A DNA stretch of 64,000 bases, from assembly GCA_963755915.1 (NCBI GenBank), contig CAVWLP010000002.1:3680001-3744000 (forward strand), given 5' to 3'. How positions within the stretch are numbered: position 1 is the first letter of the stretch; the number at the start of each line of letters is the position of its first letter. Made by a program: the position numbers and the translations under genes. Positions 13,630 through 29,207 of the stretch are shown here, piece by piece. Source of the DNA: an uncultured Phycisphaerales bacterium (GTDB taxonomy: Bacteria > Planctomycetota > Phycisphaerae > Tepidisphaerales > Tepidisphaeraceae). Below the pieces are notes generated by a model. That model was not told the origin of the DNA and did not search any database. It was given only the letters and a program-made list of their open reading frames with translations.

Positions 13630-16581
13630 TCATCCGGGGCGATCGATGCTCAGCTTGCGCATGCGCCCCTGAAGTGTGGTGCGATTCATCCCCAATCGCT
13701 CGGCCGCTCCACCCTTGCCGCTGATTTTCCACTTTGTCTGTTCCAGGACGTTCAGAATATGCCGGCGTTCCACGTCGGCCAAAGTCGTTTCGCCGCTCTC
13801 CCCCGGCTTCGACGCTTGAGCAGTGCCCGCGACAGCCATCGGCAATTCAACTTCCAACGATCTGCCCCGGCTGATGATCATCCCGCGCTCGATCACATTG
13901 CGCAGCTCGCGAATATTTCCCGGCCAGTCATACTGCTGAAGCGCCGTCATCGTCTTCTGGGGAATCGAACTGATTTTTTTCGCCATCAATTTTGAGAATT
14001 CCCGAACAAATGCTTCGACCAGGCGCGGAATATCCTCGCGCCGATTTCGCAGCGGCGGGACCGCGATGGGAAATACGTTCAAGCGGTAAAAAAGATCGCT
14101 CCGGAATTTGCCCGCTCTGATCGCTTCTTCCAGATTCCGATTGGTTGCAGCTACAACCCGCACGTCTGAACGAAGTGTCTTGTTTCCTCCCACGCGTTCG
14201 AACTCCCGCTCCTGAAGCACGCGCAGAAGCGCGACTTGCGTCTCTTCCGGAAGCTCCCCGATCTCATCCAGAAAGAGCGTTCCGCCCGCGGCCATCTCAA
14301 AGCGCCCCTCGCGCCTTTGCGTGGCCCCCGTAAACGCCCCTTTTTCATGTCCGAACAATTCCGATGCGATCAGCGACGGCGCGATCGCCGCGCAGTTCAC
14401 TCGTATAAACGCGCGACCCGCCCGGCGAGACCTTTTGTGTATCGCCCGCGCAACCAGCTCCTTTCCCGTTCCGGTTTCACCCGTAATCAGCACCGTGGAA
14501 TCGGTCGGCGCAACCTTCACCACGCCTTCAAGGACCTTCTTCAAAGACTTCGATGAGCCGACGATCTCTTCAAACATCGATGCCTGATCGATCTCTTCTT
14601 TCAACGCCACGTTTTCGCGATACAACTCATCCTTGAGCTTCTTGATTTCTTCGTACGCTTCCTCCATCGCCTTCCTGGCGCGGTGCTGCTCCGTTACGTC
14701 CATGAGTGACCCAACGCATTCCAAGTCTTTGGTAGGACTCTCCTCCAAAACCTGCATGACTACGTGAAGGTTCTTGATTGACCCATCCGGCAGAACAATT
14801 CGGTATTCGAGATCCGGAGCGATTCGCTCTTGCGTTATACGAGCAAGCGCCCGGTTTGTGATCTCAAGATCCTCGGGATGCATGCGCTGCATAATCCAGG
14901 CTATCGTGGGTTTGAAGCTGAATGGTTCATATCCGTAAATCCTGAACATCTCCTCCGACCAGATGATCTCCCCGGTCGTGAGATTTAACGCGAAGCTACC
15001 GGTGTGGTTGAGCGACTGAGCCGTCGCCAGGTATGCTTGCCGGCGGCGCAATGCCTCCTCGGCGGCCTTCCGCTTGGTGATGTCAACCACGATGGCCGCA
15101 TACAAAGAACCGGACTCTCCTGCCGACGGAAGCCGCGTCGCATAGCATTCGACCCAGACATCGCTGCCGTTCCTGCGGCGATATCGTTTCTCGTAATAAG
15201 CAGACTCCCGGCGATTTTCGCGAATGTCCCTGTAAATCGCTTCCGACGTCTGAACGTCTTCCGGATGCGTGTACTCGCGCGGATGCATCGTTCGAAGTTC
15301 GCTCTCCGTATATCCCACCATTTTCTGATACGCCTCGTTCGCCGAGACGAAGCGAATGTTCTCGTCGATCAAAACGATACCCACAGCCGAATTCGCAAAC
15401 ACCGCTCGCCACTGCGATTCGCTCTTGCGCAGTGCCGTCGTTAACTGCTCTTGCTCAGTCACATCTATCCCGGTTCCCACAAATCCCCGGCCGCTGGGTC
15501 CCCGGACACCGACGCACCGAACATGCCGAATCGCTCCATCCGGCCGCACAATCCGCTTCGTAAAGTCAAATCCCCGTGGCTCGGACAGCATCTTTTGAAT
15601 TGTTTGCGCCACGAAATCCCGGTCTTCAGGATGCACAAGCGCCAGGTATTCCGCGATATTCGGCGCCTTACGGCCCGGATCCAGTCCGTGTATCTCAAAC
15701 AATTGCGACGACCAATACTCAAAGCCGGTAGAGTTGAAAGCCCAGCTCCCGCTGTGTGCCAGTCGTTGCCCCTGCGAAAGGTAGAACTCGGCCTGCCGGC
15801 GCTCTTCAATGTCGATGCTCGAACCGAACCATTTCACGATCCGGCCGGCCTCGTCGCGAAGCGGCAGTTTCCGATGCAAAACCCAGCGATATTGCCCGTC
15901 AAAACGGCGCACTCGAGATTCGCACTCAAGCGCATTCCCCGACGCGAGGCTCGACCGCCACAGCCTTACCAGTTCGTCGACATCGTCGGGATGGATCTTC
16001 GACATCCAATTCCAACCCTCGATTTCTTGCAGTTGAACCCCCAGATAATCCAGCCAGCCCCGGTTGAAGTAATCCAGGTGTCCGTCAGGCCTGCCGGTAT
16101 GGAGCAGAGCGGGCGTGGTATCGGCCACCAGGCGAATGCTTCGCTCCGCTCGCTTTTGGTCCTCGATGTCGATGGCGGACCCATACCACCTGGTGATTCT
16201 TCCCTTACCATCGCGAATCGGGGCTTCACGGTGCAGTAAAACGCGATATTCGCCATCGGTGCGCCGTACGCGCCCTTCGCTCTCGAAAGGCTCACCGCTG
16301 GCAATTGCCGCGCGCCATTTCGCCAGAAAAACGCCGGCGTCGTCCGGATGAATTCTTTGCGTCCATTTCCATCCGCACACCTCTTCATACGGCGCCCCGA
16401 GAAACGTCAGCCAGCCCTGATTGAAGTAATCGATATACCCATCCGCCCTGGCGCTGTGCAGAAGTGCCGGTGCAGCTTCCACTAAGGCGCGGAAAGAGTC
16501 TTCCTCATTCGAACGAACCTGATCCATGCCGGGCGGCGGTGGTTCGAATGACGGGTATGGTTGTAAGTCGCTTGTGGCCAC
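13630..16581 (-). CDS. Multi-PAS sigma-54-dependent Fis-family activator
   Basis: About five PAS/PAC repeats (IHPDD/HPED), GETGTGKE, GAFTGA, WPGNIREL, C-terminal HTH. Confidence 0.93.
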   Translation of the reverse strand: MATSDLQPYPSFEPPPPGMDQVRSNEEDSFRALVEAAPALLHSARADGYIDYFNQGWLTFLGAPYEEVCGWKWTQRIHPDDAGVFLAKWRAAIASGEPFESEGRVRRTDGEYRVLLHREAPIRDGKGRITRWYGSAIDIEDQKRAERSIRLVADTTPALLHTGRPDGHLDYFNRGWLDYLGVQLQEIEGWNWMSKIHPDDVDELVRLWRSSLASGNALECESRVRRFDGQYRWVLHRKLPLRDEAGRIVKWFGSSIDIEERRQAEFYLSQGQRLAHSGSWAFNSTGFEYWSSQLFEIHGLDPGRKAPNIAEYLALVHPEDRDFVAQTIQKMLSEPRGFDFTKRIVRPDGAIRHVRCVGVRGPSGRGFVGTGIDVTEQEQLTTALRKSESQWRAVFANSAVGIVLIDENIRFVSANEAYQKMVGYTESELRTMHPREYTHPEDVQTSEAIYRDIRENRRESAYYEKRYRRRNGSDVWVECYATRLPSAGESGSLYAAIVVDITKRKAAEEALRRRQAYLATAQSLNHTGSFALNLTTGEIIWSEEMFRIYGYEPFSFKPTIAWIMQRMHPEDLEITNRALARITQERIAPDLEYRIVLPDGSIKNLHVVMQVLEESPTKDLECVGSLMDVTEQHRARKAMEEAYEEIKKLKDELYRENVALKEEIDQASMFEEIVGSSKSLKKVLEGVVKVAPTDSTVLITGETGTGKELVARAIHKRSRRAGRAFIRVNCAAIAPSLIASELFGHEKGAFTGATQRREGRFEMAAGGTLFLDEIGELPEETQVALLRVLQEREFERVGGNKTLRSDVRVVAATNRNLEEAIRAGKFRSDLFYRLNVFPIAVPPLRNRREDIPRLVEAFVREFSKLMAKKISSIPQKTMTALQQYDWPGNIRELRNVIERGMIISRGRSLEVELPMAVAGTAQASKPGESGETTLADVERRHILNVLEQTKWKISGKGGAAERLGMNRTTLQGRMRKLSIDRPG

Positions 16582-19151: not shown

Positions 19152-19226
19152 GCGCCTGTAGCTCAATTGGCAAGCAGCGCCGCGCTTACATCGCGGAGGT
19201 TGCTGGTTCAAGTCCAGCCTGGCGCA
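19152..19226 (+). tRNA. tRNA-Val(TAC)
   Basis: Anticodon arm CCGCG-cttacat-CGCGG; T arm GCTGG-ttcaagt-CCAGC. Confidence 0.85.
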
Positions 19227-19271
19227 TGAAAGGACAAAGGCCGTGAAAACGCCTGGAAAATCAGGCCTTTT

Positions 19272-19343
19272 ACGCTGTTAGCTCAGAGGCAGAGCACCCG
19301 CCCGATAAGCGGGAGGCCGGAGAGTCGAGACCTCCACGGCGTA
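19272..19343 (+). tRNA. tRNA-Ile(GAT), degenerate T loop
   Basis: CCCGC-ccgataa-GCGGG; T loop GTCGAGA; acceptor ACGCTGT/ACGGCGT. Confidence 0.65.
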
Positions 19344-19354
19344 CTGAAAATCTC

Positions 19355-19429
19355 GCACTGGTAGCTCAATCGGATCAGAGCTCCGGTCTACGAAACCGGA
19401 GGTTGAAGGTTCGAATCCTTCCCAGTGCA
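19355..19429 (+). tRNA. tRNA-Arg(ACG)
   Basis: CCGGT-ctacgaa-ACCGG; canonical T arm. Confidence 0.92.
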
Positions 19430-19488
19430 CTGGTGTCGTAAGTGATTGTATCTAATTACGATGTATTTGTGGTTGCTGATAAGGTTTC

Positions 19489-19560
19489 GCACTCGTAGCT
19501 CAACGGCGGAGCCACCGGCTCTTAACCGGTGGGTTGCAGGTTCGAATCCTGCCGGGTGCA
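19489..19560 (+). tRNA. tRNA-Lys(CTT)
   Basis: ACCGG-ctcttaa-CCGGT. Confidence 0.92.
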
Positions 19561-19614
19561 TGAAAGGAGAATGTCAGATGAATCGGTTCAGGAGAAAACG
19601 GTGCAAATAATTCC

Positions 19615-19689
19615 GCACCGGTAGCTCAACGGAATCAGAGCAACCCTCTTCTAAAGGGTCGGCTGGGGGTTCGAATCCCTCCCGGTGCA
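19615..19689 (+). tRNA. tRNA-Arg(TCT)
   Basis: ACCCT-cttctaa-AGGGT. Confidence 0.92.
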
Positions 19690-19701
19690 TGCGGACAGTG
19701 C

Positions 19702-19773
19702 GCACCGGTAGCTCAATGGCAGAGCCGCCGCCTTTTAAGCGGAACCATGCAGGTTCGATTCCTGCCCGGTGCA
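19702..19773 (+). tRNA. tRNA-Lys(TTT)
   Basis: CCGC-cttttaa-GCGG; T arm GCAGG-ttcgatt-CCTGC. Confidence 0.88.
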
Positions 19774-19789
19774 TGAAGAGAAAAGTTTC

Positions 19790-19864
19790 GGTTCAGTAGC
19801 CCAACCGGCAGAGGCGCCTGACTCAGAATCAGACTTAGTGCAGGTTCGAATCCTGCCTGGACCA
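19790..19864 (+). tRNA. tRNA-Leu(CAG), short variable loop
   Basis: CTGA-ctcagaa-TCAG; acceptor GGTTCAG/CTGGACC. Confidence 0.85.
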
Positions 19865-19873
19865 TAGAAAAAA

Positions 19874-20111
19874 GTTGCGGTAGCTCAATCGGATTGGCTC
19901 TGTCTCATGAATCATCGCGCGGCCAGACGAAGTGGATTTCGTCCTCGGGCAAGGAGCGACGACGAGCAGTATTGAACGGAAATACGGCGAGGAGGAGCGA
20001 CGCCGGCCGAGGACGAAAGACACGAGTCGGGCCCGCGAGGATTCATGAGACAGAGCCGAGAGCGCGGCTCTCCGAAGGCCGAGGTTGAAGGTTCGATCCC
20101 TTCCCGCGACG
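19874..20111 (+). tRNA. tRNA-Arg(CCG) interrupted in the D loop by a 162-nt insertion
   Basis: 5' part GTTGCGG-TAGCTCAATCGGATT (19874-19895); 3' part GAGAGCG-CGGCT-ctccgaa-GGCCG...GAAGG-ttcgatc-CCTTC-CCGCGAC-G (20058-20111). Confidence 0.85.
19896..20057. mobile_element. MITE-like element with 18-bp perfect terminal inverted repeats
   Basis: GGCTCTGTCTCATGAATC (19896-19913) / GATTCATGAGACAGAGCC (20040-20057); inner pair TTTCGTCCTCGG/CCGAGGACGAAA. Confidence 0.7.
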
Positions 20112-20126
20112 TGAAAGAAAAACATT

Positions 20127-20198
20127 GGGCCCGTCGTCTAACGGGAAGACTCCTGGCCTGCAACCAGGAAATGAGGGTTCGATTCCCTCCGGCGTCCA
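20127..20198 (+). tRNA. tRNA-Ala(TGC)
   Basis: CCTGG-cctgcaa-CCAGG; G3:U70 present; one-base bulge in acceptor stem. Confidence 0.75.
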
Positions 20199-20205
20199 TC
20201 GGATT

Positions 20206-20279
20206 GCTTCGGTAGCCCAACCGGAAGAGGCGCGTGATCGAGGTTCACGTCAGTGCAGGTTCGAGTCCTGCCCGGAGCA
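20206..20279 (+). tRNA. tRNA-Leu(GAG), short variable loop
   Basis: CGTGA-tcgaggt-TCACG. Confidence 0.82.
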
Positions 20280-20292
20280 CTGAAAGCGTTTC

Positions 20293-20366
20293 GCCGCGGT
20301 AGCCCAATGGCAGAGGCGGTGGTCTCAAGAACCGTTTGTGTGTGGGTTCAAATCCCACCCGCGGCA
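20293..20366 (+). tRNA. tRNA-Leu(CAA), short variable loop
   Basis: GTGGT-ctcaaga-ACCGT; acceptor GCCGCGG/CCGCGGC. Confidence 0.85.
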
Positions 20367-20426
20367 TGAAAGGAGAATCCGATGAGTAGCGGCTCATCAC
20401 AAAAAAATAGCGAAGACTCCGATTGC

Positions 20427-20510
20427 GGAGGGTTGGCCGAACGGTAAGGCATCCGTCTCGAAAACGGACATGGCGCACGCGCCTTGGGGGTTCGAATCCC
20501 TCACCCTCCT
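20427..20510 (+). tRNA. tRNA-Ser(CGA)
   Basis: TCCGT-ctcgaaa-ACGGA; long variable arm. Confidence 0.9.
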
Positions 20511-20563
20511 TCCGACTCGCGCAGAGCGCTCGGCCTGCCGTGAGCGAGCGCAGCGAGTCGAAC

Positions 20564-20652
20564 GGAGGGTTGGCAGAGTGGCCTAACGCGCCGGGTTGCT
20601 AACTCGGAAGGCTTTGAAAAGGGCCTCGAAGGTTCGAATCCTTCACCCTCCG
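20564..20652 (+). tRNA. tRNA-Ser(GCT)
   Basis: CCGGG-ttgctaa-CTCGG; long variable arm. Confidence 0.9.
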
Positions 20653-20692
20653 CTGGATTTTGGGCGGTACGAAAATGGTTCGTCCCGCGAAG

Positions 20693-20705
20693 TGTTCTTT
20701 GACAA
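20693..20705 (+). promoter_or_regulatory. boxA-like antitermination sequence
   Basis: TGTTCTTTGACAA, preceded by a small hairpin ACGAA-aatgg-TTCGT. Confidence 0.5.
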
Positions 20706-20719
20706 TCAGGTGGCGTATT

Positions 20720-20792
20720 GCCGTCATAGCTCAGCGGAATGAGCGTCCGGTTGTCAACCGGAAGGCCATGGGTTCAACCCCCATTGACGGCG
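20720..20792 (+). tRNA. tRNA-Asp(GTC)
   Basis: TCCGG-ttgtcaa-CCGGA. Confidence 0.88.
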
Positions 20793-20797
20793 TTTTT

Positions 20798-20868
20798 GTG
20801 GATTCAGCTCCAAGGTAGAGCGGGGGCCTGAAGAGCCCCAGGGCTTGGTTCGATTCCAGGAGTCCACA
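20798..20868 (+). tRNA. tRNA-Phe(GAA)
   Basis: GGGGC-ctgaaga-GCCCC; acceptor GTGGATT/AGTCCAC. Confidence 0.82.
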
Positions 20869-20878
20869 TTGAAGCGAT

Positions 20879-20949
20879 GCGTCGGTAGTTCAGCGGTCGA
20901 ACACCGCTATGCCAATGCGGAGGCCCGGGTTCTATTCCCGGCCGGCGCA
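20879..20949 (+). tRNA. tRNA-Gly(GCC)
   Basis: CCGC-t-atgccaa-t-GCGG; T loop TTCTATT. Confidence 0.8.
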
Positions 20950-20962
20950 CTGAGATTGACGA

Positions 20963-21034
20963 GCAGTGATAACTCAGCCGGGAGAGTGCCGGTCTTCCAA
21001 ACCGGAGACGTGGGTTCGAATCCCGCTCACTGCA
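20963..21034 (+). tRNA. tRNA-Gly(TCC)
   Basis: CCGGT-cttccaa-ACCGG. Confidence 0.9.
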
Positions 21035-21049
21035 TAATGCGAGTTTGAT

Positions 21050-21122
21050 GCCGTGGTAGCTCAAAGGGTAGAGCGGTCGTCTCGTAAACGACAGATCGCC
21101 GGTTCGATCCCGGCCCGCGGCT
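21050..21122 (+). tRNA. tRNA-Thr(CGT)
   Basis: GTCGT-ctcgtaa-ACGAC. Confidence 0.92.
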
Positions 21123-21136
21123 CTTAGGGATATTCT

Positions 21137-21210
21137 GGGTGCGTAGCTCAATGGCGGAGCAGGGGCCTCATAAGCCCAAGGTTGTTGGTTCGAATCCAAC
21201 CGTTCACCCA
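21137..21210 (+). tRNA. tRNA-Met/Ile2(CAT)
   Basis: GGGC-ctcataa-GCCC; two extra bases in the 3' acceptor strand. Confidence 0.75.
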
Positions 21211-21227
21211 TTTTTAGAAACTTTTAT

Positions 21228-21300
21228 ACAGGGATAGTTCAATCGGTAGAACGCTCGGCTCTGAACCGGGTTGCTGGAGGTTCGAATCCTTCTCCCTGAA
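21228..21300 (+). tRNA. tRNA-Gln(CTG)
   Basis: CTCGG-ctctgaa-CCGGG. Confidence 0.88.
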
Positions 21301-21301
21301 C

Positions 21302-21374
21302 TGAGCCGTAGTTCAATCGGTAGCAATGCCGGTCTTTGAATCCGGCGATCGTGGTTCGAATCCACGCGGCTCAA
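21302..21374 (+). tRNA. tRNA-Gln(TTG)
   Basis: CCGG-t-ctttgaa-t-CCGG; acceptor TGAGCCG/CGGCTCA. Confidence 0.85.
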
Positions 21375-21384
21375 ATACCTTAAT

Positions 21385-21458
21385 ACCTTCGTGGTGGAAT
21401 TGGTACCACACTCGGTTGTTACCCGATGAGATTGCAGGTTCGAATCCTGCCGAAGGTG
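21385..21458 (+). tRNA. tRNA-Asn(GTT)
   Basis: TCGG-ttgttac-CCGA; acceptor ACCTTCG/CGAAGGT. Confidence 0.82.
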
Positions 21459-21480
21459 TTAGCGGAGCGAGACGCTCCGC

Positions 21481-21559
21481 TAGAAGGTAGAAAGTAGAGA
21501 GTAGAAAGTAGACTGAAATCCCGTCTTCCCTACTTTGTACTTTCTACTCTCAACTTTCT
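21481..21559. repeat. Inverted pair of heptamer tandem repeats
   Basis: (GTAGAAA/GTAGAGA)n followed by complementary (TACTTTC/TACTCTC)n. Confidence 0.7.
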
Positions 21560-21570
21560 CGCGCAGCGCC

Positions 21571-21642
21571 GCTCTCGTCGTCTAATGGTCAGGATAACCG
21601 GCCTTCAACCGGAGAGTGTGGGTTCGATTCCCTCCGGGAGCA
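21571..21642 (+). tRNA. tRNA-Glu(TTC)
   Basis: CCGG-ccttcaa-CCGG; acceptor GCTCTCG/CGGGAGC. Confidence 0.82.
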
Positions 21643-21656
21643 CTGCAAGTTCAATT

Positions 21657-21730
21657 CAGCGTGTGGCGAAGCTTGGCATCGCGCGTGCCTCGGGCGCACG
21701 AGATCGAAGGTTCGAATCCTTCCACGCTGA
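21657..21730 (+). tRNA. tRNA-Pro(CGG)
   Basis: CGTGC-ctcgggc-GCACG; C1-G72. Confidence 0.9.
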
Positions 21731-21740
21731 CTGTTTTAGC

Positions 21741-21825
21741 GCGTAGGTCGCATAACTGGCATTGCAGCGGGCTGTAACCCCGCCGACCCAACGGGTTTTT
21801 GGGGGTTCAAATCCCTCCCTACGCA
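21741..21825 (+). tRNA. tRNA-Tyr(GTA)
   Basis: GCGGG-ctgtaac-CCCGC; long variable arm. Confidence 0.88.
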
Positions 21826-21846
21826 TTGCGGCCAGAGGCCGCGAAC

Positions 21847-21919
21847 GCGCCGGCTGTTCCAGCGGTGGAACGCCCGCCTCCAAATCGGGAAACGGCAGGT
21901 TCGATCCCTGCCCGGCGCT
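21847..21919 (+). tRNA. tRNA-Trp(CCA)
   Basis: CCCG-c-ctccaaa-t-CGGG; acceptor GCGCCGG/CCGGCGC. Confidence 0.8.
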
Positions 21920-21929
21920 GAAACTTTTT

Positions 21930-22001
21930 GAGGATGTGGCCGAATGGCAAGGCGCGGGTCTGCAAAGCCTGCTGATGCTGGTTCGAATCCAGTCATCCTC
22001 T
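21930..22001 (+). tRNA. tRNA-Cys(GCA)
   Basis: CGGGT-ctgcaaa-GCCTG; U73. Confidence 0.88.
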
Positions 22002-22003
22002 TT

Positions 22004-22078
22004 GTGGCCGTAGCTCAACTGGATCAGAGCACCGGGATGTGGCCCCGGTCGTTGTGAGTTCAAATCTCACCGGTCACC
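22004..22078 (+). tRNA. tRNA-His(GTG), no encoded G-1
   Basis: CCGGG-atgtggc-CCCGG; C73; preceding base is T. Confidence 0.88.
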
Positions 22079-22124
22079 CTGAAAAAATACGCCCCCTGTT
22101 GTCGGTTTGTGAAAGGAGTTTGAG

Positions 22125-22385
22125 ATGACGCGTGCAACGCAATTTGACGTTTTGCCGGCCGATGTCGGCGCCGCAAGCGTTGCGGTGATTCACGTTCGGT
22201 TTGCCGGACAAAGCTTTGACGTTCCGCTGGCGAGCCTGGATGTCGGCGTCCAAAGCGCTGACGGCGCCATCAGGGCAGCCGTGGCCAACTGGCTGAGAGT
22301 GTCGCCGGCCCGTCTGGAGGCCTATGTGATCGACCGCCATGCCAACGGCAATCTGACGATTCGTCCCGAAGCGGTTTTCGGATGA
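22125..22385 (+). CDS. Small protein ending in Gly, putative ubiquitin-like/beta-grasp protein
   Basis: AAAGGAG RBS; 86 aa with beta-beta-alpha-beta pattern; ends IRPEAVFG-stop; ThiF gene in the same cluster. The CDS is solid, the fold is inferred. Confidence 0.65.
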   Translation: MTRATQFDVLPADVGAASVAVIHVRFAGQSFDVPLASLDVGVQSADGAIRAAVANWLRVSPARLEAYVIDRHANGNLTIRPEAVFG

Positions 22386-22397
22386 ATCGTGTTGCCG

Positions 22398-22564
22398 TGC
22401 CGCGGCCGGGACGCCGGGATCGCACCCAACGCCAGAAGCTTACAAACAAGGTTGGCACGGCGGGCAACCGCTGTGCCAGGGGTGCGAATCCCCCCAGAGG
22501 TCCTGGTTAGGACCGCAACAGATGCTTTTGTGACTCGTGCGATCGCGGCGTCCCGGCCGCGGCA
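22398..22564 (+). ncRNA. Y RNA-like structured RNA, copy 1
   Basis: Ends pair over ~27 bp (TGCCGCGGCCGGGACGCCG.GATCGCAC / GTGCGATC.CGGCGTCCCGGCCGCGGCA); CCAACG..AAGCTTACAAAC motif; internal T-arm-like GGGG-tgcgaat-CCCC. Confidence 0.7.
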
Positions 22565-22589
22565 AAATTCAGGAGTTTTATGGATCGAG

Positions 22590-22772
22590 ATCGGCCGCCT
22601 GCGAATTGCGGCCCGCGCCCAACGATTGGAGCATACAAACTGGTTGCTTGTGGGGATCATTTTCCCGCAATGAAGGTTCGAATCCTTCCACCCCGTCTTT
22701 GAAGAACTGTGCGGGGTGCGAAAATATTTGCTCCCGCAACTTGCGCGAACCGCAATTCGCCGGCGATCCGAT
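22590..22772 (+). ncRNA. Y RNA-like structured RNA, copy 2
   Basis: Outer stem GCGAATTGCGG/CCGCAATTCGC; CCAACG..GAGCATACAAAC; T arm GAAGG-ttcgaat-CCTTC followed by loop-closed stem CACCCCG/CGGGGTG. Confidence 0.72.
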
Positions 22773-22804
22773 TGGAACTTAATCACGGAGACGCCGCCAA
22801 AACA

Positions 22805-22970
22805 TTCTGCAGTACACGCCGTACCCAACGGCGCGAGCATACAAACGTTGCTAACGTAGAGGTTACGGGTTCGAGTCCCGTCAGGCCAGCTTTCAATCAT
22901 TCGGGCCTGTAGCTCAATGGTAGAGCGCTAAAAAGTGGCTCATGCGACTTGTATGGCGTGTTCTGCGGAT
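22805..22970 (+). ncRNA. YrlA-like RNA with circularly permuted tRNA domain, copy 3
   Basis: Outer stem CACGCCGTAC/GTATGGCGTG; T arm ACGGG-ttcgagt-CCCGT, then loop-closed acceptor CAGGCC/GGCCTG, then D arm TA-GCTC-aatggta-GAGC. Confidence 0.8.
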
Positions 22971-22987
22971 TTTATGAAAGGAAGAGA

Positions 22988-23163
22988 TCGATTCGCCGAT
23001 GCCGCGCCTGCACCCAACGGCAGGAGCATACAAACTTGCGGGTTCGAATCCCGCCATTTGCGAATGCAAATGACGTCCATTTGGAAGGACACCTGACTCA
23101 CAATCAGGCGTTTAACAACGCACAGCTCGTGTGACTTGTGCGGGCGCGGCGCCGGTGAATCGA
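22988..23163 (+). ncRNA. Y RNA-like RNA with a permuted tRNA retaining an anticodon-like arm, copy 4
   Basis: Outer stem GCCGCGCCTGCAC/GTGCGGGCGCGGC; T arm, acceptor hairpin CATTTGC-gaat-GCAAATG, D arm GTCC/GGAC, arm CCTGA-ctcacaa-TCAGG. Confidence 0.75.
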
Positions 23164-23185
23164 CTTGACGGAAAGGAGCAGCACC

Positions 23186-24835
23186 ATGACGAACATGAAC
23201 GCACACCTCACGACCGAACAGGACGCACGTCTCCGGCTGCTGAACACGCTGCTGACGACGCCGCACCGCAAGCTCCAGAAAGTTCACCCGGTGCATGAAG
23301 AAATCGCGGCCAACGATCCGCGCTTCTACGTGCGCCTCGCTTCCTGGTACTTCGACCACGGCGACGTTCGCGACCACAAGGAAATGTTCGTGGTTTCGCT
23401 GGTTTTGAGCGATTTCGAAGGACACCGCGACGTTGGATTGGCCCTGCTGCGCCAGCTCCCGCCGTACGAAGTGGGGCGGGTGCTGGACTTCATCAACGGC
23501 CGCAAGACAACCCGTAAGGTGATCGTGCGCACTCGCAAGGCGCGCAAGGACCGCGCGGCTGCGAAGGCTCAGCCGGGCCTGATCAATCGAATCGCGCGCC
23601 TGGTGACGGGAAACGCCGCGGAATCGGCGGAAGCCGGGCCGACCGAAGCAGCGCCGGCGCCGGAAATCAAGCTGGTGACGGAAACCTTCGGGCTCTTCCG
23701 CAACCCGCCGCGCTCGCTACGGACGGAAATCGTCCGCTACCTGCGTGAACGCGAAGCCGACGGCGAATGGTTCGACAGCACCGTGCTCGTTGCCCGCAAG
23801 GCGATCAAGCGGCTGTACGCGCTGAACCACGTGAAGCCGGGTGATCGCGCCCAGCGGATCCTCTTCGACGAAGATCCGCCGGCCGGCAGCCGGATTTACG
23901 CTTTGCGCAAGCTCGCCGCCGCAACCACGCCGGCGGAGCAGGCGCAGGCGATTATCGACAACGCGATTCCGTATCGAGTCGCCCAGTCGGTCGTCAAGCA
24001 GATGACGCCGACGATTCTGCTGGCCCTGATCGAGCGGATGAGCCCTCAGGAACTGATTAACAACGTCGCCTCGCTGACGAAGCGCGGCGCGATGGACAAT
24101 CCGGACCTGAAGGCGTTGATCGACCAGAAGCTTGAGCAGGCCCAAACGGCCCAGCGGGTTAGCGGGCTCAAGGCGCAGAAGGCGATTGAGTCGGCCGGCG
24201 CAACGGTGTCGCCGGACGTGAAGGCGAAGCTCGAAAGCGTCGCCGACGCGCAGATCAAGGCTAAGGGCCGGATCGACCGTCCCACGGCGCTGCTCATCGA
24301 CAAGTCGGGCTCGATGTCGCTGGCGATTGAACTCGGCAAGCGCATCGGCGCCCTGATTTCCGCGATCTGCCGCGCGGAGCTCTTCGTCTACGCGTTCGAC
24401 ACGATGGCTTACCCCATCGAGCGCGGCGGCGACGACCTTGCTTCGTGGGAAAAGGCGCTGGTTGGCATCAAGGCCGGCGGCGGAACGAGCTGCGGAGTCG
24501 CCGTCGAGGCGATGCGCATCCGCAAGCAGTACGTCGAGCAGATCATTCTCGTCACCGACGAGGGTGAAAACACGGCGCCGCTGTTTGTGCCCACGCTGCA
24601 GAAGTACCGGGAAACGGTCAAGGCCGTTCCCAACATCTGCATCGTTCGCGTCCCGCGCAGCGTGACGACGGTTGAGTCGAATTGCCGCGCGGCTGGTTTG
24701 ATGGTCGATGTGTTCCAGTTCGCCGGCGACTACTACTCGCTGCCGAACCTGGCGCCGCTCCTGAGCAAGCCGAGCAAGCTCGAATTGCTCATGGAGATCC
24801 TGGAGTACCCTCTGCCGAAGCGGAGGTCGGCGTAA
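23186..24835 (+). CDS. Alpha-helical + vWA domain protein, probable divergent Ro60/TROVE-like RNA-binding protein
   Basis: AAAGGAG RBS before ATG 23186; C-terminal vWA with MIDAS DKSGS, GGGTS, VTDEGEN; basic helical N-terminal region; directly follows the Y RNA-like repeats. Confidence 0.75.
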   Translation: MTNMNAHLTTEQDARLRLLNTLLTTPHRKLQKVHPVHEEIAANDPRFYVRLASWYFDHGDVRDHKEMFVVSLVLSDFEGHRDVGLALLRQLPPYEVGRVLDFINGRKTTRKVIVRTRKARKDRAAAKAQPGLINRIARLVTGNAAESAEAGPTEAAPAPEIKLVTETFGLFRNPPRSLRTEIVRYLREREADGEWFDSTVLVARKAIKRLYALNHVKPGDRAQRILFDEDPPAGSRIYALRKLAAATTPAEQAQAIIDNAIPYRVAQSVVKQMTPTILLALIERMSPQELINNVASLTKRGAMDNPDLKALIDQKLEQAQTAQRVSGLKAQKAIESAGATVSPDVKAKLESVADAQIKAKGRIDRPTALLIDKSGSMSLAIELGKRIGALISAICRAELFVYAFDTMAYPIERGGDDLASWEKALVGIKAGGGTSCGVAVEAMRIRKQYVEQIILVTDEGENTAPLFVPTLQKYRETVKAVPNICIVRVPRSVTTVESNCRAAGLMVDVFQFAGDYYSLPNLAPLLSKPSKLELLMEILEYPLPKRRSA

Positions 24836-24838
24836 TTC

Positions 24839-24870
24839 AGCGGCGCGGCTCAAAAAGCCCGCGCCGCTTT
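24839..24870 (+). terminator. Possible intrinsic terminator or processing hairpin
   Basis: AGCGGCGCGG-ctcaaaagc-CCGCGCCGCT followed by a short T run. Confidence 0.45.
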
Positions 24871-24884
24871 TGGAAGGTCGTTAT

Positions 24885-25586
24885 ATGCGCTCGGACATGG
24901 CCAAAGTAATCGTGGAACGGCCCCGCAGAGGCGGCGGAATCCGTTATCCGCGCAGTCACCCGGATTCCCATCGATTGGACATCGAGGATTTCCGCAGTCG
25001 CCAGGGCATGCGCCGGCCGTGGCTCAGTTCCCACGCAAAGGGATTGAATGAAAACCTCGCGCCCCTGGAGCGCTATCTGCGAACCCACGTGGGCCGCCCG
25101 TGGGATGACATTTACAGCGAGATTTGCGAGCACATGAATCGCAATTCCGCCGTTCAACTGCACATCTGGCAGCACCTAATGCAATTTGTCTGCAGAGATG
25201 TTTATGTCACGCTCGGTTTGGTCAAGCCGTCATGGTGGCACGGCGCGGGAAGGTTTTATGTCGACCCGAGCACGGGAATATTGCGCGAAAATCTGTTCAG
25301 GTGGCGCTACCGGCGGCCCGAACCGAAGCCCGATCCAAACCGCGTTCCAGCGAGCGAGGATATCGAATATCGGCGAATTGAGGGCATCTGGTATGAATTG
25401 CGCTTGGCGCCGATTCCGAAGTTTCGCATCGGCTACGACTTCGCGATCAGAAAACATCTGACCGAAATCAGCGACGATCTCCTTCACAAGTTTTACGACC
25501 GACAGGTTTACGCCGCGAGGAAACGCCAATTGAACAAGAAAGAAATCAGAAAACTTGGACTGACAACGGCAGGGACAAAATCTTGA
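24885..25586 (+). CDS. Basic hypothetical protein (MRSDMAKVIVERPR...)
   Basis: Arg/Lys-rich ORF whose stop overlaps the next start; LNENLAPLERYLRTHVGRPWDDIYSEI. Confidence 0.75.
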   Translation: MRSDMAKVIVERPRRGGGIRYPRSHPDSHRLDIEDFRSRQGMRRPWLSSHAKGLNENLAPLERYLRTHVGRPWDDIYSEICEHMNRNSAVQLHIWQHLMQFVCRDVYVTLGLVKPSWWHGAGRFYVDPSTGILRENLFRWRYRRPEPKPDPNRVPASEDIEYRRIEGIWYELRLAPIPKFRIGYDFAIRKHLTEISDDLLHKFYDRQVYAARKRQLNKKEIRKLGLTTAGTKS

Positions 25587-26440
25587 AAAAGGAACTTCTT
25601 CAAACTCTTAAGAATCTTGCTGCCGCGGAGAATGCGTTCGTCGACATCGAATTCCTCGCCCCGGTCCTGCGCGGCTCCGGCGTCGCGGTAAAAATTGCCG
25701 GGGTCCGCTGCAACGTCGCGATTGATCCGCCCGATTTCCAGGGCTGGGGTGTCTTTCGCGCCGATTCCCTGACGAGCGCCGCTTTGCTTCGCGAAGCGAC
25801 CCCCACGCAGCGGCGAAACTATCTGCGTCTGCTTCCCTCGGTCCGCCTAATCGTTTGTGGCGGAAAGGCGAGCACTGCGATGGCCCTTCCCGCCAATCCC
25901 TCGGACACGCGCTTCTATTTTGCGGGACCGGTCTTTGTGCAGCTTTGCCCGAAAATCGATTTGTTCACGACGATAATGTGCCGGTTCTATGCCGCTCAAT
26001 TTTGGTTCGACAGTCTGGATTCGCGCACTGATCCCGCCGCCGCAGCGTACTTGCGGCGTGAACTGACGAACATGACCGAACCGAAAAATCTTTCCCGTAG
26101 GGGCGTAACCCGTGGCGAGCGATTCGCCTACGCCTTTGAATTTTCGCGCCGCGCCAGCGCAATTCTCGCCGACCGGCGGCATCGCGCCGACGTCCGCCTA
26201 AAGCAGGCGCTGGCCCATGCCGGCGCCATCCTGACCGATTTTTCCGAAGACCACGATTTGTTTCGCGTCGCTTATTTGGTCGACGGCCGCCGTCATCTGA
26301 GCAACGTGCGCAAGGACGATCTCACAGTTCAATCCGCCGGCATTTGCCTCGCCGGCCAGGACCGGAATTTCGATCTCGCGAGCCTGGTAGGAGTCCTTCG
26401 CGAGGGCGATTCCATGTCCAGATTTCCCCGCCGGCGGTAA
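25583..26440 (+). CDS. Hypothetical protein
   Basis: 285-aa ORF translationally coupled to the upstream gene; C-terminal AGICLAGQDRNFDLASLVGVLREG. Confidence 0.75.
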   Translation: MKKELLQTLKNLAAAENAFVDIEFLAPVLRGSGVAVKIAGVRCNVAIDPPDFQGWGVFRADSLTSAALLREATPTQRRNYLRLLPSVRLIVCGGKASTAMALPANPSDTRFYFAGPVFVQLCPKIDLFTTIMCRFYAAQFWFDSLDSRTDPAAAAYLRRELTNMTEPKNLSRRGVTRGERFAYAFEFSRRASAILADRRHRADVRLKQALAHAGAILTDFSEDHDLFRVAYLVDGRRHLSNVRKDDLTVQSAGICLAGQDRNFDLASLVGVLREGDSMSRFPRRR

Positions 26441-26460
26441 TCTGATTTCGAGGACGCTAC

Positions 26461-27114
26461 ATGCCCGGAGCCTTCCATCACGAATCCCTCTACCGCGGCC
26501 CCGAAGCGCTTGCGCGGCTGGCGTCGCTGCGCATCACCCTCTGCGGCGCCGGCGCGATCGGTTCGAACCTGGCCGACAACCTCGTCCGCCAGGGCGCGGC
26601 GAAACTGCGCGTCATCGACGACGACCGCGTCGAGCAGCACAACATTTCCACGCAAATCTACGGCGAATCAGATGTAGGCGTCTGGAAGGTCGAAGCCTTG
26701 CGGAACCATCTTTTCCGCGCCTGCGGCATCGAAATTGACGCCGTGCGGAAAAGACTCACCGCGCAAAACGCCGGATCGCTTCTGAAAGATGCCGATCTGG
26801 TTATCGATGCGCTCGACAATTCGCAGTCGCGCCAGATCGTGCAAGACCATGCGCGAGCAACCAATGTCCCGTGCATTCACATCGGCCTGTACGAAGACTA
26901 CTGCGAATCGATTTGGGACGAGCAATACCGCGTGCCCGCGGATCGTGCGAATCAGCATGACGTTTGCGATTATCCGCTGGCCCGGAACCTGGTACTGCTC
27001 GCTGTCGCGATTGCGTCAGAAACGATCGTGAAATGGCCCGCCACCGGCGAGCGTGCGAATCTCTCCGCGACGCTCAAAGATTTTGCGGTCAGGCCCCTGG
27101 TGCAGCGGGTTTGA
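26461..27114 (+). CDS. ThiF/MoeB/E1-family adenylyltransferase
   Basis: GAGAIGS nucleotide-binding loop, DDDRVEQHNISTQ, KVEAL, DLVIDALDN..SR; no CxxC zinc pairs. Confidence 0.9.
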   Translation: MPGAFHHESLYRGPEALARLASLRITLCGAGAIGSNLADNLVRQGAAKLRVIDDDRVEQHNISTQIYGESDVGVWKVEALRNHLFRACGIEIDAVRKRLTAQNAGSLLKDADLVIDALDNSQSRQIVQDHARATNVPCIHIGLYEDYCESIWDEQYRVPADRANQHDVCDYPLARNLVLLAVAIASETIVKWPATGERANLSATLKDFAVRPLVQRV

Positions 27115-27123
27115 AACTGCTGA

Positions 27124-29207
27124 TCACTTCCCCGCCAATTGCGCAACCGCAGCGATAAGCTGCTGCGGCTCCACAGGCTTCGTGAGGTGCATCTGAAATC
27201 CCGCAGTGAGCGCGAATCCGGTCCTCCTCGCGCATAAGCAGTCAGCGCGATCGCCGGCGTATTCCCTCCGCTGGCGGCCGGAAGCTGCCGAAGCATCTGG
27301 ATCATCTGAAATCCATCTTCTCCCGGCATTGCGATATCGCTCACCAGCACGTGCGGCATGCATTTCCCCATGCATTCCATCGCTTCGCGAACCGAACTCG
27401 CCGCCGTGACCATCGCCTCCGCACGCGACAGAATTTCGCGAACCAGCTCGAGCGCATCGGGCTCATCATCGATAACGAGAACCTTCTTTCCCGATAGCTT
27501 GATGCCATTGACGGTATGAGGGGCATTGTTTTTCGGTGCGACGGCCGGCACGGAAGGCGCTTTGTGAAATGGCGACGTCGGCAGTGTCACGGTAAATGTG
27601 GCCCCACTTCCCAGCCCCGAACTGTGCGCCGCCACGCTTCCGCCATGCAGCTCGACGATATGCCGCACGATCGTCAGCCCGATGCCAAGCCCCCCGTGCG
27701 ATCGGGTCATCGTATTGTCCGCCTGGCGAAACCGGTCGAACACAAACGGCAGAAACGCGCCGTCAATTCCCTGCCCCGTATCCGCGATCTGAATCTGCGC
27801 GTGATGATTCACGGACTCGAGGCTCACGTGCACCTGCCCCTGCGGCGGCGTAAACTTCACCGCGTTCGCCAGCAGGTTCCACACCACCTGCTGGAGCCGG
27901 TCAGGGTCGCCGGAAATCTTCGCGCTTGCGCCCAATTCCACTTCCAGTTGGATATTCTTCGCGTCGGCCGCGGGCCGGATCGCGTCAACCGCCGACTGAA
28001 CGATCAGCTCCAGCGGCACATCCGCCATTTGCAGCCGCATCTTCCCCGAGCTGACGCGCGAAACGTCCAGCAAATCCTCAATCAATTTCGTCTGCGCCTT
28101 CACGTTCCGCTCGATGACGTCCAGGCCATGCGCGGCGTCATCAGGCAGTTTCTCGGTGCGCAAAATCTGAGTCCACCCGACGATCGCATTCAGCGGCGTC
28201 CGCAATTCGTGCGACAACGTCGCCAGAAATTCGTCCTTAATGCGATTGGCTTCGCGCTCTTGCGCAAAAATAATGTTCTGAATCGCGATCGAGGTGATCT
28301 GGGCAAGCTGCACAAGGATCGCCTCATCGTCGCTGGAAAACGAGTCCTTGCCGCGGTCCATCAGCAGAATCAGGCCGAGATTCTTGCCGTCGCGACCGCT
28401 CAGCGGCGCCGCCAGCAGCCCGCCCCGCGTCGTCGGCAGCTCCAGCTTGCGAATTATCTCCCAGTCCGGATGCTCGCGCAGCTCCGATTCGCTGAGCCGT
28501 ATCGCGATCGGCGATTGTGCGATGATCGTACCGGCCACGGGCTCAAGCTTGATCGGCCGGTTGCGCCACTGCGAGAAACGGTCCGAAAATGCCGCCGCCG
28601 CGCGGATCGGAGACGGCCGGTGCGTTTGCAATGGATCGGCCAGTATCAGCGAGCCGCAGAAATGGCTCCCGATCAGTTCCCGCGCATAGTCGGTAACCGC
28701 CCGGATCATCTGCTCCACCGACGGTGCGCTGTTAATGGCGATCGACGCGGTCGAGAGCATCTGAAGCTGCCCCGCTCGCCGGCGCAATGCTTCGCTCTGC
28801 CGCCGGGTTTGCGCCGTCATCTGGTAAAGCGAAACGAAAACCCCCACCTTGCTTCGCAAAACTTCCGGCGCAAACGGCGCGGTGAGGTAGTCGACCGCGC
28901 CGAGGCTGTATCCCTTGGCCACCAGCGGGTCATCCCCGAACGCCGTGATAAAGATGATCGGAATGTGCTGCGAGCTTGGGCGTTGCCGAATCAGCTCCGC
29001 GGTTTCAAACCCATCCATCCCCGGCATGTTCACGTCGAGAAGGATGACCGCAAAGTCTTCGTTGAGCAGGCATCGCAGCGCATCACGCCCGGTGTAGGCC
29101 CGAACGATCCGCTGGTCCAGGTCCTGTAGAACCGCTTCCAGCGCCAGGAGATTCTCAGGCTTGTCATCCACGATCAGGATGTTCGCCGGTGCGCCCGCTT
29201 CAGTCAT
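27124..29207 (-). CDS. Hybrid sensor kinase REC-GAF-HisKA-HATPase-REC; apparent frameshift near 27225
   Basis: ILIVDD, LSHELRTP, N/G boxes, second receiver completed in another frame (GFQMHLTKPVEP). Confidence 0.9.

Follow-up and report, generated by a model that had tools for sequence, protein, structure and literature searches.

The stretch of DNA analysed here (the window) comprises 64,000 nucleotides (nt) from an uncultured Phycisphaerales bacterium (NCBI GenBank assembly GCA_963755915.1, contig CAVWLP010000002.1, positions 3,680,001 to 3,744,000 of the forward strand), and positions are counted from its first letter unless a related locus is named. Between 19152 and 27114, its plus strand carries a co-oriented series of genes consisting of a tRNA array, an open reading frame (ORF) of 86 amino acids (aa), four Y RNA-like genes, a Ro60-like protein, the proteins P0003 and P0004 and a ThiF/E1-type enzyme (Table 1). 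A preliminary description of this DNA had listed the same features, and every one of them was recovered at its place on the plus strand. We describe these genes as a module in which a Ro60–Y RNA ribonucleoprotein (RNP) particle appears to be encoded together with a minimal cassette for the activation and transfer of a ubiquitin-like protein (Ubl).

Table 1. Features of the module in the window
Feature	Position	Strand	Evidence or remark
Long tRNA gene array	19152..22079	+	27 intact genes; ARAGORN and Rfam
Interrupted tRNA-Arg(CCG)	~19875..20111 (approximate)	+	by-eye reading; weak partial Rfam match
Ubl-like small protein P0002, 86 aa	22125..22385	+	C-terminus ...RPEAVFG-stop; complex model with E1
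Y RNA-like gene 1 (Y1)	22399..22563	+	terminal stem, CCCAAC loop, T-arm; class "T only"
Y RNA-like gene 2 (Y2)	22589..22768	+	fold, common motif; class "T only"
Y RNA-like gene 3 (Y3), canonical YrlA type	22807..22968	+	match to Rfam YrlA RF02553; alignment A6
Y RNA-like gene 4 (Y4)	22990..23161	+	T-arm and anticodon-arm-like hairpin CCUGACUCACAAUCAGG; fold, motif
Divergent Ro60/Rsr-like protein P0001, 549 aa	23186..24835	+	fold search, vWA motif
Accessory basic protein P0003	24885..25586	+	between Ro gene and OB/Cys gene
OB/Cys protein P0004, 285 aa, no known family	25583..26440	+	structure model, alignment A3
Minimal ThiF/E1-type adenylating enzyme P0005, 217 aa	26461..27114	+	Pfam ThiF

The protein P0001 combines a helical N-terminus with a vWA-type alpha/beta C-terminus that bears the motif DKSGS. 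When its structural model, built from 25 homologs, was compared with the PDB by Foldseek, the top 11 matches listed were all Ro60, Rsr or TROVE proteins (E 4.8e-11 to 2.7e-8), aligned over the whole chain (520–570 columns). The best match was Rsr of D. radiodurans (2nvo, E 4.8e-11), followed by human Ro60, the Ro60 of Thermus phage phiLo and Xenopus Ro. The residues D372, S374, S376, T434 and D458 are invariant in 25 sequences, and the pattern DxSxS...T...D, which we take to be the metal site of the vWA domain (metal ion-dependent adhesion site, MIDAS, type), is complete in P0001. Sequence comparison places the protein at the margin of the family: a phmmer search of P0001 against the TROVE chains of the PDB gave an E-value of 0.006 and its family profile one of 0.063, and three homologs (66–72% identity) reach the Pfam model vWA_Ro60 at 25.4–28.7 bits (cut-off 27.7), while P0001 itself is assigned to no family in Pfam, NCBIfam, PADLOC or PHROGs. 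The TROVE-like fold expected of this vWA protein was thus borne out by full-length matches to Ro60/Rsr, and the modelled fold strongly supports P0001 as a divergent Ro60/Rsr.

Related loci were collected through the Ro gene. The Ro-like family amounted to 2761 proteins at E ≤ 0.001 among 8000 candidates scored; scanning one genome per species gave at least 669 Ro-encoding stretches, of which 80 were kept, resulting in 59 loci, all anchored on Ro. By their labels, Planctomycetota account for 57 of the 59 (Tepidisphaerales, Phycisphaerales, Gemmatales, Isosphaeraceae, Planctomycetaceae and Pirellulales); of the other two, one is labelled Thermoflexales and one "uncultured bacterium" (L038). Locus L041 is identical in sequence to L038 and was dropped from the counts. 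Across the planctomycete orders carrying the module, Ro identity ranges from 51 to 74%.

Searching these loci with the five window proteins (tblastn) revealed a fixed order, namely P0002, RNAs, P0001, a variable slot, P0004 and P0005, always on the strand of the Ro gene. Where at least 1.5 kb of upstream sequence was available, P0002 was found in 38 of 45 loci and at least one Y element in 40 of 45. With at least 4.5 kb downstream (37 loci), P0004 was syntenic in 32 loci and P0005 in 31, both proteins being present in 31 of the 37; L018, L022, L026, L044, L047 and L058 lack the pair. The full protein set (Ubl, OB/Cys protein and E1) was present in 27 of the 31 loci with both flanks. Homologs of the Ubl, Y RNAs, Ro, P0004 and E1 therefore co-occur in the same order in other genomes, as a gene-neighbourhood survey had been expected to reveal. 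Genes beyond P0005 and before the array vary from locus to locus, and the flanks found in the window (sigma-54 activator, DUF1559 protein, histidine kinases) are not kept beside the module elsewhere; the module is therefore delimited and ends at the E1 gene. Since the Ro gene has the Ubl gene on one side and the E1 gene on the other, the halves of the module interleave and do not merely adjoin. The short intergenic gaps, a 4-nt overlap (25583–25586) between the ORFs 24885–25586 and 25583–26440 and a single terminator-like site on the plus strand of the module, located within tRNA-Cys, were counted in favour of an operon structure; sigma-70 and terminator scans of the window remained at background level.

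Among the incomplete loci, L018 has a Ubl with an altered C-terminus, a P0004 cut to 140 aa and no E1 gene, and it has kept Ro, two Y elements and 29 tRNAs; it is a decaying copy of the module. L058 is without Ubl, P0004 and E1. One locus (L005:11838–13304) encodes an ATP-dependent ligase-domain protein about 1.7 kb downstream of the E1 gene (DNA_ligase_A_M, 1e-9), a single occurrence.

The four RNAs of the window (Y1–Y4) are about 165–180 nt long and each folds with a long terminal stem. Compared with shuffled sequences, the fold z-scores are −10.2 for Y1 (fold energy −111.1 kcal/mol), −5.1 for Y2, −4.2 for Y3 and −8.2 for Y4. Common to all four are the motif CCCAACG-N-AGC(A/T)TACAAAC and a GGTTCGA-type T-arm. 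The Rfam model YrlA (RF02553) matches Y3 at 22838–22958 (50.7 bits, E 1.4e-9) and, weakly, Y4 at 23036–23090 (24.6 bits); at its gathering score of 69 bits, it has no match in the window or in 20 related loci.

A motif scan of the window and the related loci yielded 157 5′ motifs, all on the plus strand, of which 149 had a matching 3′ motif, giving 148 unique elements (one to eight per locus). Of the 144 elements outside the window, 109 are placed in the interval from the Ubl gene to Ro or otherwise upstream of Ro, 24 in the interval from Ro to P0004 (several loci), eight before the Ubl gene and three elsewhere. In all 148 elements together, the seven pairs adjoining the motifs are 90% paired in register vs 30–58% with the 3′ strand shifted, and pairs alternate in the basal stem, for example between A-U (77) and G-C (53). 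By their arms, the elements fall into those with a T-arm followed by a D-arm (45, including Y3), those with a T-arm only (61, including Y1, Y2 and Y4), those with a D-arm before the T-arm (five) and those with neither arm (37).

The 45 elements with T-arm and subsequent D-arm were aligned with Y3 as the first row (alignment A6). The consensus comprises 30 pairs in six helices, i.e. the basal stem, two short helices, the T-arm, a 7-base-pair (bp) acceptor-like stem and the D-arm. Compensatory changes occur at 19 of the 30 pairs and 98.0% of the cells are paired, values that none of 500 shuffles equalled and that compare with 28–46% in slid controls, the structure having been derived from A6 itself, which somewhat favours it. 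All seven pairs of the acceptor-like stem covary, and helices 1–3 are 91–98% paired with compensatory changes present. The YrlA-like combination of T-arm, acceptor-like stem and D-arm is thus supported in Y3 and 44 further elements; Y1, Y2 and Y4 have the T-arm only. With the Rfam match in Y3 and the covariation in A6, the four RNAs first described as Y-like turn out to be of the YrlA type, and the comparative analysis strongly supports their being tRNA mimics with a covarying Ro-binding-type stem.

Several further observations concern the Y elements. A hairpin in Y4 (23103–23119, CCUGACUCACAAUCAGG) has the look of an anticodon arm, with a 5-bp stem and the 7-nt loop CUCACAA. The five elements with the D-arm before the T-arm (L008:9651–9783, L057:9127–9260, L022:670–805, L017:8790–8916 and L019:9840–9970) bear an almost complete tRNA body, with D-arm, anticodon arm (7-nt loop) and T-arm in tRNA order, on a Ro-type stem, and ARAGORN calls a tRNA within three of them. 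These elements are a more complete tRNA mimic than YrlA, and they hint at an exchange of parts between Y RNAs and the tRNAs of the array. The basal stem is commonly followed by a T-rich run (last columns of A6, consensus ..TTT), which suggests termination or processing after each Y RNA.

Upstream and downstream of this Ro–Y RNA unit lie the candidate Ubl and its candidate activating enzyme. Of 40 P0002 ORFs from the loci, 39 end in RP(E/Q/M)A(V/I)FG-stop. A core of about 66 aa is conserved in the family, with H23, R25, G28, S30, Y67, R71, G75, T78, R80, P81, A83, F85 and G86 invariant in alignment A4, and an exhaustive profile search gathered 460 representatives at 50% identity. Compared with PDB sequences, the P0002 profile gave chance-level matches only and no sequence link to solved Ubls, and the ESM Atlas returned unnamed clusters only. 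A beta-grasp fold of P0002 is presumed; as the partner in the complex runs, the protein had a predicted local distance difference test (pLDDT) value of 81.

P0005 matches Pfam ThiF with 106.7 bits (E 1.4e-30, cut-off 28.1) and falls below every NCBIfam equivalog cut-off (ThiF, 93.9 vs 275 bits; MoeB, 74.3 vs 449 bits). The nearest solved sequences are 9egb/9egc (ThiF-type, 9e-19), then Uba1, TcdA and MoeB. Invariant in 32 sequences are G29, G31, A32, G34 and S35 (the GxGxxGS loop), K76, D116, D119, N120, R124 and C169; the glycine-rich ATP loop and the Asp, Arg and Lys residues correspond to the motifs of an E1 adenylation site. In a model of the P0002–P0005 complex, which scored 0.76 compared with 0.17 for the best of three controls, Ubl residues 80–86 contact E1 residues 29, 31–34, 117–121 and 124, which form the nucleotide pocket, and Ubl residues 23–30 pair with residues 202–211, the C-terminal strand of the E1. 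Of 157 solved complexes, 116 attained the mark applied to this score, as did two of 215 mismatched pairs, a calibration that is only rough because our own alignments were used. Complex runs had at least 83% of contacts in common and partner pLDDT values of at least 80. C169 is situated in a loop (157–173) whose other residues touch the Ubl in the model, and is itself outside the list of confident contacts. The pairing of Ubl and E1 anticipated earlier fits both the retained C-terminal glycine and the placement of the tail in the adenylation pocket, and the complex model strongly supports the view that P0002 behaves like the cognate Ubl of P0005, its invariant C-terminal glycine being modelled in that pocket.

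Of five over-long proteins found as candidate fused forms of P0002, the four examined look like over-called N-termini and end in FG. Some distant relatives (P0274, P0341, P0346, P0298, P0334 and P0335) do continue past FG. In P0274, FG is followed immediately by a vWA domain (motif DRSGS; Pfam VWA, 2e-4), and the others run into uncharacterised domains of about 50–140 aa.

Between Ro and E1, the conserved protein is P0004, which was modelled with a pLDDT of 93.2 and a predicted TM-score (pTM) of 0.82. From the N-terminus, the model shows a helix, two OB/S1-like beta-barrels, a helix of 36 residues, a meander of four strands with Cys255 after it, and a last helix. Foldseek returned weak matches to RNA-binding proteins with several S1/OB domains (best E 1e-3 in the PDB and 7e-4 in BFVD), among them S1 domains, Csl4/Rrp4, the cold-shock/S1 domains of RNase II, Unr and the OB domains of Mpa. 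The densest invariant block of alignment A3 surrounds the cysteine (G253, C255, L256, G258, D260, F263, D264 and L265), and the order of the elements in this part of the protein (helix 177–212, meander 216–251, Cys255, helix 265–277) resembles a minimal UBC fold. All 379 P0004 relatives found are unnamed and none has a Pfam domain; P0004 itself matches nothing in Pfam, NCBIfam, PADLOC or PHROGs and has no usable match in the ESM Atlas.

P0003, which has a net charge of +16 over the 238-aa ORF starting at 24870, belongs to no family in Pfam, NCBIfam, PADLOC or PHROGs. Its homologs are restricted to L027 and L028 (two of 58 loci), and elsewhere the slot between Ro and P0004 is filled differently, so that P0003 is regarded as an accessory gene. 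The slot holds AAA ATPases in L016 (11652–13301, Pfam AAA 6e-16) and L053 (11736–13214, 3e-18), a small vWA protein in L024, a transposase in L005 and nameless proteins in other loci. The "two coupled hypotheticals" of the preliminary description thus separate into P0004, which is conserved and syntenic, and P0003, which is neither a constant nor a common part of the module.

The tRNA array at the head of the module was annotated with two programs. ARAGORN finds 26 tRNA genes in 19152–22079, and Rfam also finds 26 at the gathering score, including one overlooked by ARAGORN (19272–19343), which is a tRNA-Ile according to its anticodon loop (GAT); the tRNA-Trp called by ARAGORN (21847–21919) is absent from the Rfam list. 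As each list holds one extra gene, the union comprises 27 intact tRNA genes, which represent all 20 amino acids and none of which encodes the 3′ CCA. In addition, a 262-nt gap (19865–20126) contains, according to a by-eye reading, the halves of a tRNA-Arg(CCG) whose D-loop is split by a palindromic insert of about 190 nt. The acceptor halves, the T-arm and the CTCCGAA anticodon loop are all recognisable in this reading; the insert has 19-nt inverted ends (TGGCTCTGTCTCATGAATC and its complement), and Rfam reports only a weak partial tRNA match there (20054–20103, 22 bits). Relatives have an intact tRNA-Arg(CCG) at the corresponding slot, and the split copy is either a pseudogene or an insert-bearing gene. 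It accounts for the earlier count of 28 tRNAs. A further stretch of 111 nt (21460–21570) contains an AG-rich/CT-rich inverted repeat and no tRNA; at this place, between Asn and Glu(TTC), relatives have a tRNA-Glu(CTC).

With 27 co-oriented genes in 2.93 kb, the array is a long tRNA array by the definition given in PMC4758250 (20 or more tRNA genes, with two or more per kb). Such arrays have been recorded in Planctomycetes (PMC8421152 and PMC4758250) and are considered to spread horizontally and to be induced by stress on translation (PMC8421152). At the related loci, we counted as an array at least four co-oriented tRNA genes immediately in front of the Ubl gene or of the Y RNAs. By this measure, 10 of 58 loci have one; the initial view of the array as part of the module is not supported as it stands, the array being a recurrent, lineage-specific accessory. 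Six loci (L003, L006, L007, L018, L028 and L031), all labelled Tepidisphaerales or Phycisphaerae, repeat the tRNA order of the window immediately before the Ubl gene, and shorter or cut arrays occupy that position in L005 and L022. Another tRNA order is common to L038 (= L041, labelled Planctomycetales) and L045 (Pirellulales). The occurrence of two array types at one position, in different orders of the phylum, argues for a functional reason to sit there.

Parts of this module have counterparts in known systems. Bacterial examples of Ro60 with YrlA RNAs are the RYPER particle of Deinococcus, the rsr-yrlBA-rtcBA operon of Salmonella and phage Ro60/Yrl. As in these, P0001 has the ring-type Ro60 fold with a vWA domain, one or more Y RNA genes lie directly upstream of Ro on the same strand, and the Y RNAs, like YrlA RNAs, have a long 5′/3′ stem together with a tRNA-like T-arm/D-arm. 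The module departs from typical bacterial Ro60/YrlA pairs in the missing Pfam TROVE match of P0001, in YrlA matches below the gathering score and in having up to eight Y elements per locus. Unlike the Salmonella operon, the module loci contain no RtcB, RtcA or RtcR among the ORFs scanned (43 in the window, 13 in gaps and 49 downstream). Finally, in contrast to the Ro operons known from the literature searched, it carries a Ubl, an E1 and an OB/Cys protein.

The second half of the module recalls the pairs ThiS–ThiF, MoaD–MoeB, TtuB–TtuC, SAMP–UbaA and Urm1–Uba4, in which a small protein ending in glycine is joined by a ThiF-type enzyme of about 210–270 aa. In the complex model, the P0002 tail likewise occupies the nucleotide pocket and a Ubl strand lies beside the C-terminal strand of the E1. 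Unlike the members of these minimal pairs, P0002 has no match to the ThiS, MoaD or ubiquitin families and its last residues are FG instead of GG, and, unlike in ThiF/MoeB systems, P0005 is far under the equivalog cut-offs and genes for thiamine, molybdopterin or thiouridine synthesis are not linked. With Bil, Bub and CBASS Cap2/Cap3, the module shares a Cap2-type-like E1 domain and a Ubl-like substrate with a terminal glycine; it differs from them in having no recognisable conjugating enzyme (E2), JAB or other deconjugating peptidase, cyclase or effector, and in that its conserved partners are an RNA-binding particle and structured RNAs. The array of the window, unlike published long tRNA arrays, is fixed directly upstream of the Ubl/Y RNA/Ro module.

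In the full texts open to search, no paper was found that places Ro60/TROVE or Y RNA and ThiF/E1 or a Ubl in a common operon; the sole paper holding all those terms concerns an Asgard virus genome, in which Ro60 and three E1 homologs are described separately. Within the accessible texts, Ro60 is not mentioned in PMC8421152 and PMC4758250, nor are Y RNA and ThiF in PMC8421152. Chen et al, 2014 (PMC4201824) already list Ro60 with a YrlA-like RNA for Planctomycetes (Supplemental Table S1), and their supplement names Planctomyces limnophilus as one of the Ro60/YrlA carriers. The claim that the combination was uncharacterised therefore needs to be divided: Ro60 with YrlA and tRNA arrays in Planctomycetes were known, and the link of a Ubl, an E1 and an OB/Cys protein to Ro–Y RNA is undescribed as far as the literature search reached, its function being one that we infer.

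We consider it slightly more probable than the opposite (roughly 0.55) that the module is a conserved chromosomal operon of Planctomycetota in which a Ro60–Y RNA RNP is encoded with its own minimal Ubl activation and transfer cassette, the output being conjugation at the particle. In such a pathway, P0005 would adenylate Gly86 of P0002, and the activated Ubl would be taken up on the invariant Cys169 of the E1 and passed to the invariant Cys255 of P0004, which may act as a carrier or as an E2-like conjugating factor. The OB/S1-like barrels of P0004 would dock on RNA, either the tRNA-like Y RNAs or client RNA bound by Ro, so that the Ubl could be attached to a protein of the Ro particle or to one captured by it. 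This attachment would switch or mark RNA surveillance and decay upon damage to tRNAs or the translation apparatus. In the lineage of the window, whose closest loci are of the Tepidisphaeraceae type, a complete spare tRNA set would head the transcription unit and probably provide replacement tRNAs. Bacterial Ro60 tethers PNPase, its other roles being poorly understood, and a function in translation stress and RNA quality control is proposed here by analogy with known Ro/Y RNA biology.

A number of results weigh against this reading, beginning with its proteins. P0001 matches neither Pfam TROVE (PF05731) nor vWA_Ro60 (PF25045), even at E ≤ 10, and its TM-scores reach only 0.38–0.47 with a model of moderate confidence (pLDDT 73), so that the fold assignment is good and the geometry is not. 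P0002 has no match in Pfam, NCBIfam, PHROGs or PADLOC, and none of its 57 scanned relatives matches a Ubl family. As E1–Ubl complexes have already been solved, the score of the P0002–P0005 model demonstrates likeness and does not prove binding, and its pass may reflect the resemblance to MoeB–MoaD and ThiF–ThiS. The OB-fold similarity of P0004 is weak (whole-chain TM < 0.26), and both its family profile and its C-terminal 116 residues alone are at chance level when compared with PDB sequences. The active-site cysteine of E2 enzymes is preceded by an HPN motif, which P0004 lacks, its local sequence being (S/A)AGIC(L)xG. Since no E2 occurs among the top 50 Foldseek matches of P0004 in the PDB or in BFVD, we infer an E2-like role solely from the order of its elements and the invariant cysteine.

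The remaining objections concern the system as a whole. The module, gap and downstream ORFs scanned contain no deconjugating peptidase (JAB or other), E2 or peptidase family, and the proposed pathway names no ligase (E3) and no target. Anchoring the survey on Ro leaves the frequency with which the trio of Ubl, OB/Cys protein and E1 occurs without Ro outside its scope, and loci lacking parts are too few for a meaningful association test (Fisher p = 0.19). Lastly, co-transcription of the module is predicted from the arrangement of its genes.

To our knowledge, sulfur transfer and phage defence are the roles with which ubiquitin-like conjugation in bacteria has been connected so far, and a phylum-wide operon of the proposed kind would provide a genetically testable link between RNA surveillance and ubiquitin-like chemistry. 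The analysis also defines two uncharacterised protein families (P0002 and P0004), offers a functional context for cryptic long tRNA arrays and enlarges the variety of Y RNAs, with up to eight per locus and some bearing a nearly whole tRNA body.

The alternative that survives best, although we regard it as unlikely, is that P0002 is a sulfur carrier like ThiS, MoaD, Urm1 or TtuB, which P0005 would adenylate for conversion to a thiocarboxylate, P0004 delivering the sulfur to a uridine of the Y RNAs or tRNAs without any conjugation. P0005 is of the minimal size of ThiF and MoeB, which are also its best NCBIfam models, the module has no family of E2, E3 or deubiquitinating enzymes, and Urm1–Uba4 connects a Ubl/E1 pair to tRNA thiolation (PMC5349211, PMC7911844 and PMC6007339). 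The surroundings are rich in tRNAs and T-arm-bearing RNAs, and the weak OB/S1-like matches of P0004 would suit a nucleic acid-binding protein. TtuB–TtuC is a second link of this kind to tRNA thiolation. However, the module, gap and immediately downstream ORFs contain no rhodanese, cysteine desulfurase or PP-loop thiouridine synthetase, and P0002 ends in a single glycine after phenylalanine, whereas ThiS, MoaD, Urm1 and TtuB end in GG. The two invariant cysteines (C169 of the E1 and C255 of P0004) suit a thioester relay at least equally well. Furthermore, the extension of some P0002 relatives into further domains directly after FG is an arrangement typical, by analogy, of processed, conjugatable Ubl fusions, which would speak for conjugation.

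A bolder form of the conjugation pathway, which we consider doubtful, assigns the choice of the target to RNA. P0004 would then represent a new class of Ubl carrier or conjugating protein, and the RNA particle, not an E3 protein, would pick the target; the OB-like barrels would read the Y RNAs or the RNA captured by Ro, with Ro itself, a protein trapped on damaged RNA or even the RNA as possible targets. Eukaryotic Ro60 is paired with the ubiquitin ligase Ro52/TRIM21. If true, RNA-scaffolded ligation would be a bacterial counterpart of the Ro60–Ro52/TRIM21 pairing, in a phylum noted for eukaryote-like traits.

More improbable still is a defence system resembling Bil or CBASS Cap2, in which the Ro–Y RNA particle would sense tRNA damage caused by phages or toxins, the Ubl would be conjugated to an invader or effector protein, and the array would replace cleaved tRNAs. 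P0005 matches the E1 part of the PADLOC "E1-E2" (Cap2-type) models (3.4e-23) and the NCBIfam 6A-MBL model cap2_3 (3.3e-19), the slot between Ro and P0004 has the variability typical of conflict systems, and the horizontal spread and stress induction ascribed to long tRNA arrays (PMC8421152) would agree with such a role. The PADLOC match is, however, limited to the generic E1 domain, P0001–P0004 match no PADLOC model and no PHROG, and the E2 and JAB partners that define Bil/Cap2 systems are absent. Moreover, the module is widespread across planctomycete orders in an ordinary chromosomal setting, with no integrases nearby, and therefore looks like the product of vertical, housekeeping-type inheritance.

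That a Ro–Y RNA unit and an unrelated Ubl/E1 unit simply share a conserved neighbourhood is very improbable, for although the apparent link between Ro and the Ubl cassette, drawn from gene order, is inflated by Ro-anchored sampling, the units are interleaved in 27 of the 31 fully flanked loci, the Ubl gene preceding the Y RNAs and Ro and its E1 gene following them, all parts are co-oriented while the neighbouring genes vary, and extra Y elements are found between Ro and P0004 (24 of 144 outside the window).

In the window, the module is set among chromosomal genes of an ordinary kind, which encode cytochrome oxidase, efflux functions, glycoside hydrolases and two-component sensors; a DUF1559/N-methyl protein characteristic of Planctomycetota is also among them, and neither integrases nor genes of phages were found. 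A sigma-54 activator with five PAS domains is encoded on the minus strand at 13630–16581, 2.5 kb upstream of the tRNA array, and a second sigma-54 activator lies directly 3′ of the module in L017 (14912–16474, minus strand). Sigma-54 control of the module was considered and rejected: the consensus gave seven matches in comparison with 5.1 expected, and because none of them lies upstream of the module on the plus strand, the link to the activator, which is not kept beside the module in other loci, was dropped. Downstream, the longest ORF of a hybrid histidine kinase (26970–29207, minus strand) shares 145 nt with the 3′ end of the E1 gene, and its true start is probably further in. The short antisense tblastn matches to 26970–27114 in other loci are due to the conserved end of the E1.

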